Assembly: GCA_965197525.1 (NCBI GenBank)
Contig: OZ240211.1
Location: 2,112,001-2,176,000 of the forward strand
DNA length: 64,000 bases
Reading direction: 5' to 3'
Origin: Nitrosopumilus sp.
GTDB lineage: Archaea; Thermoproteota; Nitrososphaeria; Nitrososphaerales; Nitrosopumilaceae
The first letter of the stretch is position 1; each line of letters begins with the position of its first letter. Shown here one piece after another: positions 43,706 through 62,706 of this stretch. A program made the position numbers and the translations under genes. The notes below the pieces were generated by a model that ran no database searches, was not told the DNA's origin, and saw only the letters and a program-made list of their open reading frames with translations.

Positions 43706-44065
43706 GGTTCTGTCTAATAAATGGGAATATAGCGTAAAAATTATTTTATATAAAATCACTTTTTTAGTTTTGAAAAGAAGACAAATCATATTAGACACAT
43801 TCACATTGCAGGAAAAAGAGACGGAGATAACAACAACAAGATGGGGCGTCTAAACGGTGAGATAAGAGATTGTGAAAAAGTGTTTAGAGGTCTAAAAAAG
43901 TTTGATACGCCTCTTATTGATGGCATGAAAACATATTACAATTTCACAAAGAAACACGGGTCTTTGAAAGGAAAGACACCAGCAGAAGAAGCTATTGATT
44001 CAGAATGCGAGTTTGCACAAGCAAAATTCAGAATCAAATTTAGGTCTCTATAATCCGACAGAACC
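43706..44065 (+). mobile_element. Internally deleted IS6-like element (360 bp) with transposase C-terminal remnant
   Basis: Ends GGTTCTGTC.../...GACAGAACC; 'NNNKMGRLNGEIRD', 'YYNF.KKHGSLKGKTPAE'. Confidence 0.7.
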
Positions 44066-56509: not shown

Positions 56510-57070
56510 CTAGGCAATATTCCCATTCACGCTTCGTGTGATTCCCCCACTAGGTTGTTGATAGCATGTTAACCCCCGTCCATCCGCCAAGCGCGGCAGA
56601 TTGGTCCCTGGCCAAACATGATCGAAAAAACCTTTAGAATGATTGGGACTATCCGAGCTGCCGTGTGACTGAGTTTGATGGATCTTGCATCTTCCAGCCC
56701 CTGCAGGCACCTGTACAGCAGCAGCCCGTCATCGATTTTACCACCATCAGGGACGCAAACAGCGACTCGGCGTACTGGAACGGCGCACCCGCCTTGTTCC
56801 TGTTTGCGGCCTCCTCCTCGCGCTTTTGAGGATCGCCTCCGATGATCAATGCCTGGCAGCTCTTGGCGTATTTTTCGTTGTCAGTCATCTACAATCTGTG
56901 TCTGATTTACTGATCCTTAGCTTTTTCGGTCTCGAGGAAGGCAGAATATTCATGGTAGTGCTAAGATGAATAATGCAACAAACTAGGACTGCCGGTGGCA
57001 GCTGCCTTGAAACGAATGCAGGCAGTTCGGGAAAATTCCAAATCCGAAGGGGCGTCAAATTATTTAAATG
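56510..57070 (-). pseudogene. Degraded IS5-family transposase
   Basis: 'NRNKAGAPFQYAESLF..L.VVKSMTG' plus frameshifted downstream fragments. Confidence 0.6.
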
Positions 57071-57091
57071 TATGAATGCCGCTAAAAAATA

Positions 57092-57778
57092 GTGCAAAAG
57101 GATAGGCTGTCTGAATGGTTTGTGCCCAAGTTCGGCTCTAGGAATTTTCGGCTATCAATAGGAATCCTGTTTCTGCCCTACACCGGAATGGTGGTATCCT
57201 TTACCGTGTGGGGCTCCCTCTCGGTGGACTTCAGTCTTGACAGGCTGGCGTCAGCCTGCCTGCTCTATTTCCTTGCAATTGGGATATCCGCACACTGTCT
57301 TGACGCACTAGGAAGCAAAAAAAAGCCTTGGGGACGCATATCGCCATCAAAGCTCTGGCTAGTATCGACAGTTTCCCTGACTGCCTCCCTTTCCATCGGG
57401 CTGTACTATGCATTTTTGGATTCCTGGCTGCTGTTCCCGATAGGTGCCATCGAGGTGTTCTTTCTTTTGGCGTATAACTTGGAGCTGTTTCGCGGCAAAT
57501 TCCACAACAACGCGTCGTTCGTCATATCCTGGGGGGTCCTGCCAGTTTTTGCCGGCGCCTCAATCCAGTCAAACGCCGTATCAGTCGAGACCGTAGTGCT
57601 TTCTGCGATTGCGGGACTTGCAAGCTATGTCCACATAACCACGTCCAGAAAATACAAGGAGCTGAAGCGTCAGAACGTAGGCCGCGGGTCGTACTACAGA
57701 AAGGAGGCAGTTCTCAAGGTGACAAGCCTGGCGGTGATATCTGGCACGGCCTGCTTTTTCATCTTACGATATCTTTAA
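57092..57778 (+). CDS. UbiA-like prenyltransferase-fold membrane protein
   Basis: Multi-TM; 'SAHCLDAL', 'AYNLEL', 'FHNN..F..SWG.LP'. Confidence 0.55.
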   Translation: MQKDRLSEWFVPKFGSRNFRLSIGILFLPYTGMVVSFTVWGSLSVDFSLDRLASACLLYFLAIGISAHCLDALGSKKKPWGRISPSKLWLVSTVSLTASLSIGLYYAFLDSWLLFPIGAIEVFFLLAYNLELFRGKFHNNASFVISWGVLPVFAGASIQSNAVSVETVVLSAIAGLASYVHITTSRKYKELKRQNVGRGSYYRKEAVLKVTSLAVISGTACFFILRYL

Positions 57779-57787
57779 TTCGTGTAA

Positions 57788-58240
57788 ATGGGATACCATT
57801 GTATGAAGTCAGGTTCCGATATGCTTCTGGCCAGGATACTGGACGCCCCCGTGGGCCAGGTGGTCACCGTCCTAGGGGAGGTCCTTGACTGTGCTGTCCA
57901 GCTGCAGGTGGTGGAGCAGAACGCCGTTGCGCCCAATCAGTTCGTAAGGAAGGTCGTGATTACCGCGCGGGGGCTGCCTGTCATAAAGGCAAGCGTGAAG
58001 TTTGACTCCGCCGTGCTGCCTGAGTCCGTCATGGGCGAGCTTCTGAGGAAGAAGCGCGGCATCGGAACCATTCTCAACGTCAATGACATCGTCGCAACCA
58101 GAAGGATCATGTCCCTGGACCTGCATCCGGACCAAGGCATAACCTTGAGGGAGTACGAACTCGTTCACGGTGGGGCCGTGTGGTTTACCATATTTGAGGA
58201 GATAAACCTAGACAGTCTTGGTTCCGACAAGCACGGCTGA
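57788..58240 (+). CDS. Chorismate lyase-like (UbiC/DUF98) protein
   Basis: 'VRKVVI', 'VIKASV', 'GIGTIL', 'REYEL', 'TIFEEI'. Confidence 0.65.
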   Translation: MGYHCMKSGSDMLLARILDAPVGQVVTVLGEVLDCAVQLQVVEQNAVAPNQFVRKVVITARGLPVIKASVKFDSAVLPESVMGELLRKKRGIGTILNVNDIVATRRIMSLDLHPDQGITLREYELVHGGAVWFTIFEEINLDSLGSDKHG

Positions 58241-58891
58241 AGAGCCCCACGTCAGATCCTGCCTGCGGGTTTCCAGTCCGTGATCTTCCATGGCCTCCTC
58301 GTACTCCTGCACCCAGTTTGAGGCCCTTATCAGGCGGGGCAGGTCGGCGAAGACCTGTCTCCAACCTGGGGTGAAAAGGCCCGCGAGATTCAGCAGCCTG
58401 AAATAAAAATCCCACATTCTGCGCACCGGGCCGGCCTTTGGATATGTAAAGTCATGCAGAATTATCTTCCCGCCGGCATCGAGGTGGTCAAGGCAGCTCC
58501 TGATCAGGGTATCTGGCGTGCAGTATTTTGGCAGGTATGACGCAGTGATGCAGGAGAACTTTTCCCCTAGGCTGAGCTTTTCGGCATCCTGATTTACAAA
58601 GGAGATGTTCCGGTGCGGGGCCGACTTCTCCATGGCCTTCTCAAGGTACCCTTGGGTAACGTCGACGCCCACTATCTCCGCGTCCGGCAGCGTTTTTGCA
58701 ATCTGTCTCGTAAGGATGCCCGTACCGCAGGCAAGATCCAACACGTTTTTTTCATCAGACATGTGCTCCAGAATCTTACGTTTCCAAAGGCCGTCCTTGC
58801 CAAAGGTGGTCCAGCTGACTATCCTGTCATACGAGCTGGCGTTGCTGTTAAAAAATTTCGGGACCATGCACTTCGGACTCTCTTCGGCCAT
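58208..58891 (-). CDS. UbiE/MenG-like class I SAM methyltransferase
   Basis: 'YDRIV.WTTFG.DGLWKR', 'VLDLACGTG', 'QDAEKL'. Confidence 0.82.
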   Translation of the reverse strand: MAEESPKCMVPKFFNSNASSYDRIVSWTTFGKDGLWKRKILEHMSDEKNVLDLACGTGILTRQIAKTLPDAEIVGVDVTQGYLEKAMEKSAPHRNISFVNQDAEKLSLGEKFSCITASYLPKYCTPDTLIRSCLDHLDAGGKIILHDFTYPKAGPVRRMWDFYFRLLNLAGLFTPGWRQVFADLPRLIRASNWVQEYEEAMEDHGLETRRQDLTWGSSAVLVGTKTV

Positions 58892-58933
58892 GCTTACTGC
58901 TGGTTTTTTTGTCTAAAATAGTTTGTGAGTAGG

Positions 58934-60221
58934 GGTTCTGTGAAGTTATCGAGGGTTAACCCCTATAACTTGACTTTGACATATCGACTATTCGGATTAC
59001 CAATGGTGTGCCGGGTTCCGTCATCGCTGGCTCAAAAGTGCCAGACTGCGCTTCATCTATGTCATCTCTACTACCCCTAAACCTAGGGGGCAGCTTGCGT
59101 GATATGTTCATGGCAGCGATAATATCCCTGTCCATAAACAAACCGCAATTATTACACGACATTTTACGATGTTGTTGCATGTCCTCTTGGAGTCTCTTTC
59201 CGCATTTCGGACACTGCGTGCTCGTGTTTCTTGGGTCTACTGTCTCGACTGGAGGCAACCCGACCCATTGGGCTTTGTATTCTATTTGGCGTTGTAACTC
59301 GTAGAATTGCCACCCGTTCAATCTACGCCTGTACTTGTTACCTTGACTGTTTCCTTTTCGGTACAATTTTCTTATTCCTTTCAGGTTTTCCATGACGATT
59401 GCAGTCTTGTTTTTGACTGCGTTGTCTACTATATCCTTTGAGATTCTGTGGATGTACTGCTTTGTTCTATTGCTCATTCGTCTCTGTCTTTGTTTCCAGA
59501 ATTGACCTTTCTTTCTGCGATCATTTCTGTGGAATCCTGCCCTAGCGTGTATTGTGTTCTCCTTTATGGATAACAGTTTGTTTGTCTTGTAGACTGTCAC
59601 CTCTTTCTCGTTCCCACACGTCACATTTCTTAGGTTTCTGTCTATTCCCACTTGATTGGTGCACTCTATCTCTTGTACTGTTTTTGAAACACAAAGACTG
59701 ATGTTGAGAGCAGTCAATGAAAACGAGCGCACCGTCAAGGCGGGATCAGATAGGATTTTTTGGGTGTGAACGTTGAGTAAAATGTTGATTGGGTTATGTT
59801 TCTTGTATGGGATTGTGAGTAGTGCACCGCTGTGTTGTATACCGTAACAGTTTGTCATAAAGGGATTTTTGACTATTGGGTCTCTTATTCTGACACCTCG
59901 TTTGATTGATTGTCTTCTGTTTGATAACATGCCTGCAGCTCGTGATATTGCATTTAGTTTGTATGAAGACAGGATGTCATAATTACGTAATTCATGATAA
60001 CATAATATGGACAACCTCTTCATATTGTGAGTGTCTTCTTTCAATCCTGTCTTGATGCAATGATTGACCATCTTTGTGAATATAGCCATCATATCCATTA
60101 GATCAGAGTTCGGCGTATATTTCTGTGATATTGACTTTATCGCTTTCAACGAATATCTTACGGTTTAGAGGTTTATACAATTTAGGGATTAACAGATAAC
60201 CCTCGATAACTTCACAGAACC
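58934..60221 (-). mobile_element. 1288-bp TIR-bounded non-autonomous element carrying only tnpB
   Basis: Perfect 25-bp TIR GGTTCTGTGAAGTTATCGAGGGTTA at 58934-58958 and (reverse complement) 60197-60221; TSD TGAGTAGG at 58926-58933 and 60222-60229. Confidence 0.92.
58956..60149 (-). CDS. tnpB: TnpB RNA-guided endonuclease
   Basis: RuvC-I 'GIDRN', RuvC-II 'MENL', 'TSTQCPKCG...CNNCG', RuvC-III 'DRDIIAAMNI'. Confidence 0.95.
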   Translation of the reverse strand: MKAIKSISQKYTPNSDLMDMMAIFTKMVNHCIKTGLKEDTHNMKRLSILCYHELRNYDILSSYKLNAISRAAGMLSNRRQSIKRGVRIRDPIVKNPFMTNCYGIQHSGALLTIPYKKHNPINILLNVHTQKILSDPALTVRSFSLTALNISLCVSKTVQEIECTNQVGIDRNLRNVTCGNEKEVTVYKTNKLLSIKENTIHARAGFHRNDRRKKGQFWKQRQRRMSNRTKQYIHRISKDIVDNAVKNKTAIVMENLKGIRKLYRKGNSQGNKYRRRLNGWQFYELQRQIEYKAQWVGLPPVETVDPRNTSTQCPKCGKRLQEDMQQHRKMSCNNCGLFMDRDIIAAMNISRKLPPRFRGSRDDIDEAQSGTFEPAMTEPGTPLVIRIVDMSKSSYRG

Positions 60222-60973
60222 TGAGTAGGCAACTTGGCAAACGGCAAGACCGTGCTGGAGAAAAACACAGACTGATAAAGTGGGCGGATCCTGAGATCCC
60301 TGGAAACAGAGGCAGGATCACACCCCATAGTGAAAGCGGGTCTAAAGGAATTCGAACCCATTATGCGGCATTTTTAGGTTCCGCCACGCCGATGATGGCG
60401 ATGCCGACAGGGCAGAATAGCGCCGACTACCTGAAGGGCTCTGACAGACCGCATGCCGACCGTAGACAAACATCTGATCCCATTCACAGGTGCAGACAGG
60501 TACAATTACATCTTTATAATTAGTGGCAAGCGCAAGTGCGGAACATACCACATCTGACCAGATTATGCGGCATTTTCAGGTTCCGCAATGCCAACGATGG
60601 CGTGCCAACTTGTACCTTGTGTGCTTTTGACGGTATGTCGCTCTTCTTTTTCTCTCCTCCTACCCCTCCCCATCTTTTTTTCTTTGCACTGTACATCTTT
60701 GATCCCTTTTGCCGGGATGGCTAAACATTGCAGTTGTTATGCCGGCACCGCCCGTGTTTTAGATCAGCGACCAATCGATTTAATTCCTCAATCATCTACA
60801 CTACCCCTGCCATCTTTTCACATCGTCCTTCGTCTGATCAGCCACGTTTGTATTTGCCGCGAACACCATCAAATCAATAACAAGGAATAGCCTTCTTGTC
60901 ATGTCCGCTCCGGCCAACACACCACACATATTTATAGTTAAAAACTATAATATTATAGTAGATTACAATAATA

Positions 60974-62056
60974 GTGGATACAATGGACGAGGCAACATAC
61001 AGAATACTGGACATACTGTCACGAAGACTGGGCGCCCCCATGTCCATCAATGAGATTACAAAAAACATTGATGAAATACATGGCGGAACCTATTATGCCA
61101 ACACGCATAAAAAGATCAAGGAACTTGACAGGGAAGAAATACTGACACTGACAAAGACTGGCAGGTCATCTCTTGTGTCGCTCAACTTTGATAACTATAT
61201 GGTAATTGGCATGCTTGCAGAAATGGAGCTCAAACGCAAACATGATTTTCTGAAAGGAAAGCAAGAGATACAGATGTTCATGTTGGAAACTGATACGTAT
61301 CTTCGTAGCATTCCTCTAATATCCCATATACTGCTGATGTATCCGGAAAAAAATACAAAGCTGAACAAAGCAGAGATGCTGATTCATCTGAAAGAATCCG
61401 ACGACAAAAAAGCACTTGAAGGGACAAAGATCCAAATTCATGCAATGGCAGAAACCTTGCAGCAAACCTGCAACATAAGGATTGATTATCTTGCACTGGA
61501 GAACGGGACATTTATTGATCTGCTCAAATCAAATGAGCGCAATACGGTCAGAGAGATGCTGCACGACAAGATTGCAATACTGCACCCTCAGGATTTTTGG
61601 TTGGATATGAAAAACGTAACAGGAAAAGGAATCAAAATATCTGCCATTTCACATGAGACAAGCCCTGCCAAAATATCTGAGGAAGATATTGTGTTTAATC
61701 TTGCACGGTTCGGATATGTGGAGATTGGATCCAAAGTCAAACAAGGAAAGCCGTTCTGCATAGAGTACGTAATATCATCAATAATGTTTCATGATGATGC
61801 AAGAAGGATTGATGCCGTCCCGGTAATCATCGCAAAGAACCCAAAAATAAGCTATGATCTGTTGTTGTTTCTTGCACGAAAGTATGGGTTTGGTGGCAAG
61901 ATGCTTGGCATACTGCGCACATTAAGAAACCTGGTTGCACATGGAATGAATACAGTAGATGAGCCAATAGCACTGCTGGAAGCCATGAGGATAGAAGAGG
62001 TAAAGGCAGACGCCAAGAGCATCGAAGAAAAATTGAGGCTGTACAATGTCACTTGA
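60974..62056 (+). CDS. wHTH-containing antitoxin-like protein
   Basis: N-terminal HTH ('MSINEITK..YYANTHKKIKEL'); C-terminal 'IDAVPVIIAKN..ISYDLL'; overlaps the NTase gene. Confidence 0.7.
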   Translation: MDTMDEATYRILDILSRRLGAPMSINEITKNIDEIHGGTYYANTHKKIKELDREEILTLTKTGRSSLVSLNFDNYMVIGMLAEMELKRKHDFLKGKQEIQMFMLETDTYLRSIPLISHILLMYPEKNTKLNKAEMLIHLKESDDKKALEGTKIQIHAMAETLQQTCNIRIDYLALENGTFIDLLKSNERNTVREMLHDKIAILHPQDFWLDMKNVTGKGIKISAISHETSPAKISEEDIVFNLARFGYVEIGSKVKQGKPFCIEYVISSIMFHDDARRIDAVPVIIAKNPKISYDLLLFLARKYGFGGKMLGILRTLRNLVAHGMNTVDEPIALLEAMRIEEVKADAKSIEEKLRLYNVT

Positions 62057-62561
62057 TAACACAAAACTGCTTGATTTTCTCGAAGAGATAGACAGGGAAC
62101 TTTCTTGCAAAATTGTCATAGTTGCAGTGGGAGGTACTGCAATGACACTTGTGAATGCAAAGCCGTCCACCATAGACATTGATTTTACCATTCCAGGCGG
62201 GGATTATGACGAGCTTGAGCGCGCAAGGAAGATTGTACAGCCAGGCTTTCGGGTGAATGTTTTTCGCGATGGTGCAGTGTTTGTAACCGTTCTGCCTGAT
62301 GACTATCTGGAAAAAAGCATGTCGATTGCAACAAACCTCAAAAACATTGATCTTAGGGTTTTGGACCCGGTGGATATCATAATTACAAAGATTGAAAGGC
62401 TTGACGGACGAGACGTACAGGACATAGAGTCGTGCATAACCAATTTTCAGATAACTCAAAAACAGATTGAACAGCGGGCAAAAGACATGAATTATGCAGG
62501 AAACAGCGAGGTCTTTGTGAGCAATCTCAAAACGGTGCTGGGAAGATTCTTCAAAGAATAA
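62046..62561 (+). CDS. Small nucleotidyltransferase (DUF6036/AbiEii-like)
   Basis: 'VAVGGTAMTL...STIDIDF', 'TKIERL..RD.QD'. Confidence 0.8.
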   Translation: MSLDNTKLLDFLEEIDRELSCKIVIVAVGGTAMTLVNAKPSTIDIDFTIPGGDYDELERARKIVQPGFRVNVFRDGAVFVTVLPDDYLEKSMSIATNLKNIDLRVLDPVDIIITKIERLDGRDVQDIESCITNFQITQKQIEQRAKDMNYAGNSEVFVSNLKTVLGRFFKE

Positions 62562-62706
62562 CATGCTTTTTTTATTTGATTAAATTAATTGTAACAGACA
62601 CCTGAATCCATATCGGAGTTAGATTGTAAACATTCGGCATACACAACATCCAACTGTTTTGGTCTAATAACATGAATAGAATCTTTATTTATTTTGTAAT
62701 ATTTTT

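Follow-up and report, generated by a model that had tools for sequence, protein, structure and literature searches.

The window described here is a 64,000-nucleotide stretch of archaeal DNA, positions 2112001–2176000 of a single-contig, 2.21-Mb Nitrosopumilus genome (39.6% G+C, 99% complete), and at 58934–60221 it holds a 1288-bp element built around tnpB, the gene of an RNA-guided nuclease. This element is very probably a non-autonomous transposon of an archaeal IS6-like family, bounded by terminal inverted repeats (TIRs), whose cargo is only tnpB and an omega-RNA scaffold, and which would be moved in trans by SWIM/zinc-finger DDE transposases. Beyond this core, the sequence makes it fairly probable that the omega-RNA reads through a TIR hairpin into the flank, that the guide consists of the right-side target-site duplication plus host DNA, and that the target-adjacent motif (TAM) is 5′-(T>A)TR. 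Core and extension, taken as one explanation, are held with moderate confidence.

Anatomy of the Element and Its Nuclease

The TIR arms are 25 nt each and 100% complementary (GGTTCTGTGAAGTTATCGAGGGTTA); in the orientation of tnpB, the left-end arm, on the 5′ side of the gene, lies at 60197–60221 and the right-end arm at 58934–58958. The same exact 8-bp target-site duplication, TGAGTAGG, stands on both sides, at 60222–60229 beyond the left end and at 58926–58933 beyond the right end, on the 3′ side of tnpB. The gene itself (58956–60149, minus strand) is the sole long open reading frame (ORF) in the element and encodes 397 aa from a TTG start; its stop codon (58956–58958) falls within the right TIR, the leader between the start and the end of the element is 72 nt long, and a TATA-like box on the minus strand, TATAAA (plus-strand 60172–60177), is recognised by its letters alone 23 nt upstream of the start. 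The first-pass annotation of the window had described the perfect repeats and duplication, the lone ORF with its stop in the TIR, the 72-nt leader and the box, and all of this was correct.

The ORF at 58956–60149 is assigned to TnpB by its profile matches: the Pfam Cas12f1-like_TNB match reaches 4.9e-21, PF07282 scores 75.1 bits (cut-off 26.3), and NCBIfam NF040570 (guided_TnpB) scores 127.6 bits (cut-off 100). As had been proposed at first sight, the gene appears catalytically complete, with the RuvC D/E/D triad and the C4 zinc finger (CxxC...CxxC) predicted to be intact: VMENL (RuvC-II E), MDRD (RuvC-III D) and the zinc finger CPKC...CNNC are covered by HMMER alignments to solved Cas12f/TnpB chains, and GIDRN (RuvC-I D) was read from the sequence only.

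The window also holds, at 43706–44065, the remains of an IS6-like autonomous element, reduced to 360 bp by internal deletion, with GGTTCTGT ends and a C-terminal fragment of a DDE transposase; the match of its right end to the TIR of the TnpB element at 17 of 25 nt, which had been noted before, was found again. The remaining occurrences of GGTTCTGT in the window have no inverted partner.

Copies, Subfamilies and Miniatures

The genome contains 34 tnpB-bearing units with recognisable TIR pairs, and 31 of them have ORFs of at least 385 aa. Sixteen copies are 94–100% identical, and about 18 further full-length copies stand at 76–86%. Because the whole 1288-bp unit recurs 16 times at the former level, and because GGTTCTGT is in excess in the window (9 observed against 1.7 expected), the element ends are not a product of chance. 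Other copies with different 8-bp duplications, which the first-pass annotation had advised looking for, are abundant: perfect duplications, all different, flank 12 of the 16 copies in the 94–100% group, and most diverged copies likewise have a duplication of their own. Moreover, alignments to DNA contigs from other samples end exactly at 58933/58934 and at 60221, where varied flanks take over. The GGTTCTGT start is common to all subfamilies, and each diverged tnpB subfamily has its own internal TIR sequence; therefore, the ends and the tnpB cargo have co-diverged.

In addition to the full-length copies, there are at least nine tnpB-less miniatures of 208–497 bp, which keep both ends and the last ~350 nt of the tnpB side. 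The relatives bearing the TnpB elements are Nitrosopumilus metagenome-assembled genomes (MAGs) of 2.2–2.5 Mb; one thaumarchaeal MAG has a sponge-like isolate label. In other Nitrosopumilaceae there is a second TnpB clade, which is only 31–33% identical, yet still lies within GGTTCTGT ends and 8-bp duplications.

Two TnpB elements in the genome of OZ245003.1 (L070 and L073) carry reciprocally swapped 8-bp repeats, TAGAAACT/TTATGTTA. This swap is the footprint of homologous recombination between copies, that is to say, a chromosomal rearrangement; it is evidence for recombination between copies only, and none on a copy-in cointegrate mechanism. Copies without matching repeats are the expected outcome of such inter-copy recombination. 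An unrelated repeat family of ~835 bp occurs in several copies in the own genome, at 163169–164007 (L002:589–1427) 74 nt from one TnpB element, and is found at 80–82% identity in two other Nitrosopumilus genomes.

The Transposase That Would Move the Element

Neither the Y1 TnpA family (PF01797) nor the serine recombinase/resolvase family (PF00239) was found in the 99%-complete genome, by searches that were positive in control genomes. What the genome does contain is an intact autonomous element at genome positions 746475–748444, which is 1970 bp long, has GGTTCTGT TIRs and an 8-bp duplication, CTATTGTG, and encodes a 378-aa transposase consisting of a DDE_Tnp_IS240 domain and a ~130-aa SWIM/zinc N-terminal extension. 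Homologous DDE_Tnp_IS240 elements with GGTTCTGT TIRs and 8-bp duplications are common across Nitrosopumilaceae, and tnpB and a transposase were in no case found within one element among the 18 TIR-bounded relatives and 3 own-genome elements examined. Taken together, the missing Y1 and serine enzymes and the autonomous relatives with the same ends and duplications point to mobilisation in trans by the DDE relatives, as the first-pass annotation had suggested; the SWIM-DDE family is the sole candidate seen, and we infer that its transposases would act in trans on the common GGTTCTGT termini and so create the 8-bp duplications. A full-length transposase with matching ends, which the first-pass annotation had also advised looking for, exists: the TIR of the 746475–748444 element is identical at 18/18 positions to that of one TnpB subfamily, but at only 14/18 to that of the 58934–60221 copy.

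The assignment to IS6 also has to be qualified. IS6 is the best NCBIfam match of the 378-aa transposase and is covered over 199 of its 202 profile positions, but the score of 102.8 bits is below the cut-off of 125; the Pfam DDE_Tnp_IS240 score of 42.1 bits is above its cut-off of 27. Harmer & Hall (2019, PMC6807381) argue that the archaeal and the long zinc-finger “IS6” elements are remote relatives of IS26 and form a separate family, and that the movement of the archaeal ones is experimentally uncharacterised. Because of this argument and of the score below the cut-off, the transposase is only IS6-like, and “IS6-like” is the right term for it.

Several further elements were recorded. In the own genome, a transposase-bearing GGTTCTGT element of 4126 bp (1956395–1960520) has a frameshifted transposase and extra DNA, another of 3190 bp (699962–703151) has a 43%-identical transposase and no matching duplication, and four further DDE_Tnp_IS240-positive ORFs (378–480 aa) are without GGTTCTGT TIRs. 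Many autonomous IS6-like elements of Nitrosopumilaceae are 3.0–3.9 kb long (L085:355-3686, L088:328-3682, L130:358-4212, L106, L107 and L122) and carry an N6/N4 DNA methylase beside the SWIM-DDE transposase; in L085 and L130 the methylase is fused to an HNH endonuclease or lies next to one, a restriction-modification-like cargo. The autonomous element L102 has a NurA-domain gene as cargo. This transposon family readily takes passengers.

A Conserved RNA Structure at the 3′ End of tnpB

The 3′ part of the element, about 215 nt on the minus strand (58934–59148), overlaps the end of tnpB and, by covariation and conservation, resembles the omega-RNA of TnpB systems. First of all, among subfamilies with overall differences of 14–24%, conservation exceeds 90% at most positions of the final ~200 nt before the right end. 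The fraction of identical codons at conserved residues is about 0–0.3 over most of tnpB (0.5 in one interval) and rises to 0.5–0.88 in the last ~120 alignment codons. A consensus fold built from ten diverse copies in four genomes consists of 55 pairs, of which 13 show two-sided compensation, and 98.1% of its cells are paired; of 500 partner permutations, none reached either figure, and slid partners yielded 0–4 compensatory pairs. The miniatures retain exactly this structured region. A comparison with Rfam was negative for the element, for its flank and for the loci of the relatives.

At the nucleotide level, conservation ends with GTCAAAGTC, beyond which the subfamilies diverge. Directly after GTCAAAGTC, the last helix is formed by 6 pairs between GT.AAGT and ACTT.AC of the right TIR, which leaves AGAACC before the flank; the covariation claim for the TIR and this arm is limited to these 6 pairs. 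The right end has an extra, subterminal TIR-like copy. In two sponge metatranscriptome runs, contigs lie over the element, including the 3′ region, and some of them cross the right end into other flanks.

A One-Sided Motif in the Flank

When the 34 elements are oriented by tnpB, positions −11, −10 and −9, immediately 5′ of the left-side duplication, hold T in 27/34, T in 31/34 and A or G in 32/34, respectively, and no position stands out in the right-side flank. That is to say, TTR is found in 24 of the 34 own copies against 4.6% expected (p = 5e-25), and (T/A)TR, i.e., WTR, in 31. The same TTR precedes eight of ten independent insertions in two other genomes and, where miniatures are oriented by their RNA region, six of nine.

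Transposase-carrying relatives with good duplications (n = 11) have TTR in just one of their 22 flanks (Fisher p = 6e-8). Other GGTTCTGT elements of 0.8 kb were considered as extra controls of target preference and dropped, being single-copy or unrelated. In the clade of 31–33%-identical TnpBs, the same position holds TAT in 5/9 independent loci (p = 2e-6) and TTR in 0/9, and the difference between the two clades is significant at p < 2e-4. The motif is tied to the orientation of the cargo, is absent from the relatives without tnpB, and differs between the nuclease clades while the ends and the duplication length stay constant. Since it is one-sided and clade-specific, it behaves as a TAM would, unlike what is expected of a transposase acting on perfect inverted repeats.

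Proposed Geometry and Competing Explanations

The role generally accepted for TnpB is to cut again the empty site that a Y1 or serine transposase leaves behind without a scar. In the Nitrosopumilus element, the omega-RNA would run through the terminal hairpin formed with the right TIR and out past ...ACAGAACC into the flank. There the predicted guide template (58914–58933, minus strand), placed by the position of the TTR motif, would comprise the duplication and ~12 nt of flank, the right-end copy of the duplication giving the predicted first 8 guide nt in the minus-strand sense; in the RNA sense, the guide of this copy would read CCUACUCA and then CAAACUAUUUUA... The candidate TAM would lie directly 5′ of the left-side duplication, outside the random 8 bp, and its T-T-R instance here is TTG (plus-strand CAA) at 60230–60232 on the minus strand. 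In an unoccupied or precisely reverted site (TTG + CCTACTCA + flank), TAM and target would be contiguous, and the site would be cut; in an occupied site, ...AGAACC would stand before the target, and no more than 8 nt after the TAM would match, so that the site would be spared. The cut, unoccupied allele would then be repaired from the occupied copy, by which the element would be restored or spread. Through such homing, TAM-adjacent insertions would be kept or driven by repair, and the motif would therefore become enriched among the surviving copies.

The main competitor, though unlikely, is a fixed internal guide, in which the scaffold ends at GTCAAAGTC, the next 16–20 nt, within the element and overlapping the TIR hairpin, serve as a constant guide, and there is no homing to insertion sites. 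This would agree with the conservation that ends at GTCAAAGTC and the divergence between subfamilies after it, and in characterised prokaryotic omega-RNAs the 3′ pseudoknot does directly precede the guide (PMC13565253, section 6.2). However, the internal 16-mers of all 23 sequence variants match nothing else in the genome except scattered chance hits with 2 mismatches and no common upstream motif, in almost all subfamilies they form pairs with the TIR beside them, and the oriented, clade-specific flank motif is left unexplained.

We think it distinctly improbable that TTR reflects a preference for certain targets that is inherent in the DDE transposase, coupled to orientation and unrelated to TnpB. 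Target preferences do exist in some DDE transposons, the subterminal TIR-like copy at the right end could make the transpososome asymmetric, and the mover of the 58934–60221 subfamily is identified without certainty; but the near absence of TTR beside the eleven transposase-carrying relatives does not fit, a one-sided motif oriented by the cargo is unexpected from perfect inverted TIRs, and the motif shifts to TAT with the TnpB clade while the termini and the duplication length are unchanged.

A slimmer chance is given to the alternative that TnpB, sitting at the transposon end, reads the TAM in the target and steers the DDE transposase to TAM-adjacent integration in a fixed orientation. Such steering would explain the presence of (T/A)TR at one exact position in ~90% of copies without a heavy loss of other insertions, and it would be a primitive, guide-independent form of the nuclease–transposase coupling of CRISPR-associated transposons.

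Finally, that an IS1341-type tnpB of the IS200/IS605 family inserted into a dead, IS6-derived miniature inverted-repeat transposable element (MITE), so that the TIRs and duplication belong to the MITE and tnpB moves by its own ends, is hardly credible and already refuted by the copy structure, for although tnpB-only elements are usually of the IS1341 type and MITEs with matching TIRs exist, tnpB and the TIRs move as one unit in 34 copies and co-diverge, Y1 and serine transposases are missing from the genome, the MITEs, which keep the tnpB 3′ end, arose by deletion and are not empty shells, and the 31–33%-identical TnpBs of other Nitrosopumilaceae keep the same kind of ends and duplications; the case of an insertion into a dead mini-MITE, which the first-pass annotation had set out against itself, is thereby excluded.

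Several observations weigh against the favoured explanation, in its core or in its extension. The conserved scaffold, including the putative pseudoknot arm GTCAAAGTC, ends 38–100 nt before the element end, and by analogy with ISDra2 the guide would start after GTCAAAGTC, inside the element. To our knowledge, no characterised prokaryotic system has a hairpin placed between the pseudoknot and the guide. Duplex-energy and fixed-register tests gave no clear separation of cognate from non-cognate pairing between TIR and subterminal arm (−10.9 against −9.2 kcal/mol). The metatranscriptome data consist of contigs only, from which the strand, the RNA ends and the relative level are unreadable. The transposase-carrying control set is small (11 elements) and comes mostly from other genomes, and the own genome has no autonomous element bearing exactly the TIR of the 58934–60221 subfamily, the intact one agreeing at 14/18. 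If transposition is replicative like that of IS26, empty sites would have to come from elsewhere for TnpB to have a restorative role. No empty allele was recovered from same-genus genomes, the own genome or metagenome contigs, and the single-duplication site that had been named as a check is thus missing.

The Insertion Site and Its Neighbourhood

In the search for the empty site, two same-genus genomes that are 98% identical over the left flank of the element were found to carry a single TGAGTAGG followed by unrelated DNA, and the right flank in the window is absent there. Three other copies, compared with the same two genomes, gave flanks of 68–70% or nothing; the own genome has no paralogous empty sites, an exact search of metagenome contigs for the predicted empty site returned nothing, and a second element-rich genome has no flanks in common.

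The 98%-identical segment is 56985–58933 (1.95 kb), with a membrane protein, a small ORF and a gene resembling S-adenosylmethionine (SAM) methyltransferases; elsewhere the same two genomes match the window or other loci at only ~64–89%, where they match at all. The right boundary of the segment is the end of the TGAGTAGG duplication, beyond which the three genomes are unrelated. In one relative, the counterparts of window positions 56725–56988 and 60932–62576 are adjacent, and for this reason it looks as if ~3.9 kb, namely, the 1.95-kb segment, the TnpB element and 0.7 kb, was inserted at the site. To the right of the element, 60230–60931 is a G+C-rich non-coding stretch with a 41-nt direct repeat (60360–60400/60562–60602, 88%), in which neither a tRNA nor an Rfam match was found, and for which the loci of close relatives hold no homologue; no tRNA adjoins the insertion site. 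The sponge metatranscriptomes hold small parts of the window.

Comparison with Known Systems

The first-pass annotation regarded capture by a DDE transposon as an unusual route of spread for an RNA-guided nuclease. The route is less unprecedented than that, for the main text of Altae-Tran et al. (2023, PMC10691335) sets out six DDE-associated TnpB branches (DDE-1 to DDE-6), all with inverted terminal repeats and with the tnpB 3′ end at most 250 bp from the transposon end, and also solo TnpBs whose ends are almost the same as those of elements with a transposase. The likeness to the Nitrosopumilus element therefore lies in a TnpB inside inverted repeats common to DDE-transposase elements, and in its solo copies. 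A 2026 review names IS630, ISL2 and IS1031 as the DDE partners of TnpB, and remarks that duplication-making DDE transposons fit restorative homing poorly, which it gives as a reason for the rarity of such associations in prokaryotes (PMC13565253). In contrast to these published partners, the Nitrosopumilus partner is IS6-like, and the main text of PMC10691335 does not describe a TAM placed beyond a duplication of 8 random bp.

The kind of element is thus already known, and what is new is that the partner is IS6-like, that the element is strictly non-autonomous, that amplification has reached such a scale, and that the proposed geometry would put the TAM outside a random duplication and make the duplication the guide seed; in the literature searched, no paper pairing TnpB with Nitrosopumilus was found. 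With 34 copies in 2.2 Mb, several co-diverged subfamilies and a second TnpB clade with another motif, the family is a natural, highly amplified test case, and the geometry is concrete: TAM, 8-bp duplication, element, and a guide that would start with the duplication. If it is true, it is an example of the refitting of an RNA-guided nuclease to a transposon that makes duplications; it would also offer compact archaeal TnpBs with short TTR and TAT TAMs, and the TIR hairpin directly 5′ of the guide would bear on the origin of repeat-like elements beside guides. If the geometry is wrong, the element is still a clear case of a TnpB hitch-hiking on an IS6-like transposase in Thaumarchaeota.

Fanzor nucleases are likewise passengers of duplication-making TIR transposons, with the TIR as part of the guide-RNA scaffold (PMC3627910; PMC10530073; PMC13565253). 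In Fanzor1, the TAM includes a fixed 5′ duplication (TA, TTAA), and the 3′ duplication belongs to the scaffold (PMC13565253), whereas in Nitrosopumilus the duplication is random, with the candidate TAM on the side away from the element, and its 3′ copy would serve as guide.

With the IS1341 group of IS200/IS605 (ISDra2, IS608), the element shares the nuclease family, the scaffold over the 3′ end of the gene and, in the proposed geometry, the homing logic of a left-flank TAM and a right-flank guide. Those elements, however, have hairpin ends and a Y1 transposase and neither TIRs nor a duplication, whereas the Nitrosopumilus element has 25-bp TIRs and a probable DDE partner, and its 8-bp duplication places 8 nt between the candidate TAM and the left end. 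Membership in IS200/IS605 (IS1341) does not agree with the TIRs and duplications present and with PF01797 not being found, nor membership in IS607 with the same TIRs and duplications and with PF00239 not being found. The miniatures resemble the omega-RNA-bearing, PATE-like derivatives of TnpB elements in being 208–497-bp derivatives without tnpB that keep the scaffold and both ends, but their ends are IS6-like TIRs with 8-bp duplications and not IS605 ends.

IS6/IS26 elements (IS26, IS257/IS431) share the 8-bp duplication and a catalytic domain of the DDE_Tnp_IS240 type, and their TIR consensus, GG with G at position 7 (PMC6807381), is found in GGTTCTGT in all subfamilies. The Nitrosopumilus family differs from them in its 378-aa transposase with a SWIM/zinc extension, in its IS6 score below the cut-off and in the predominance of simple insertions.

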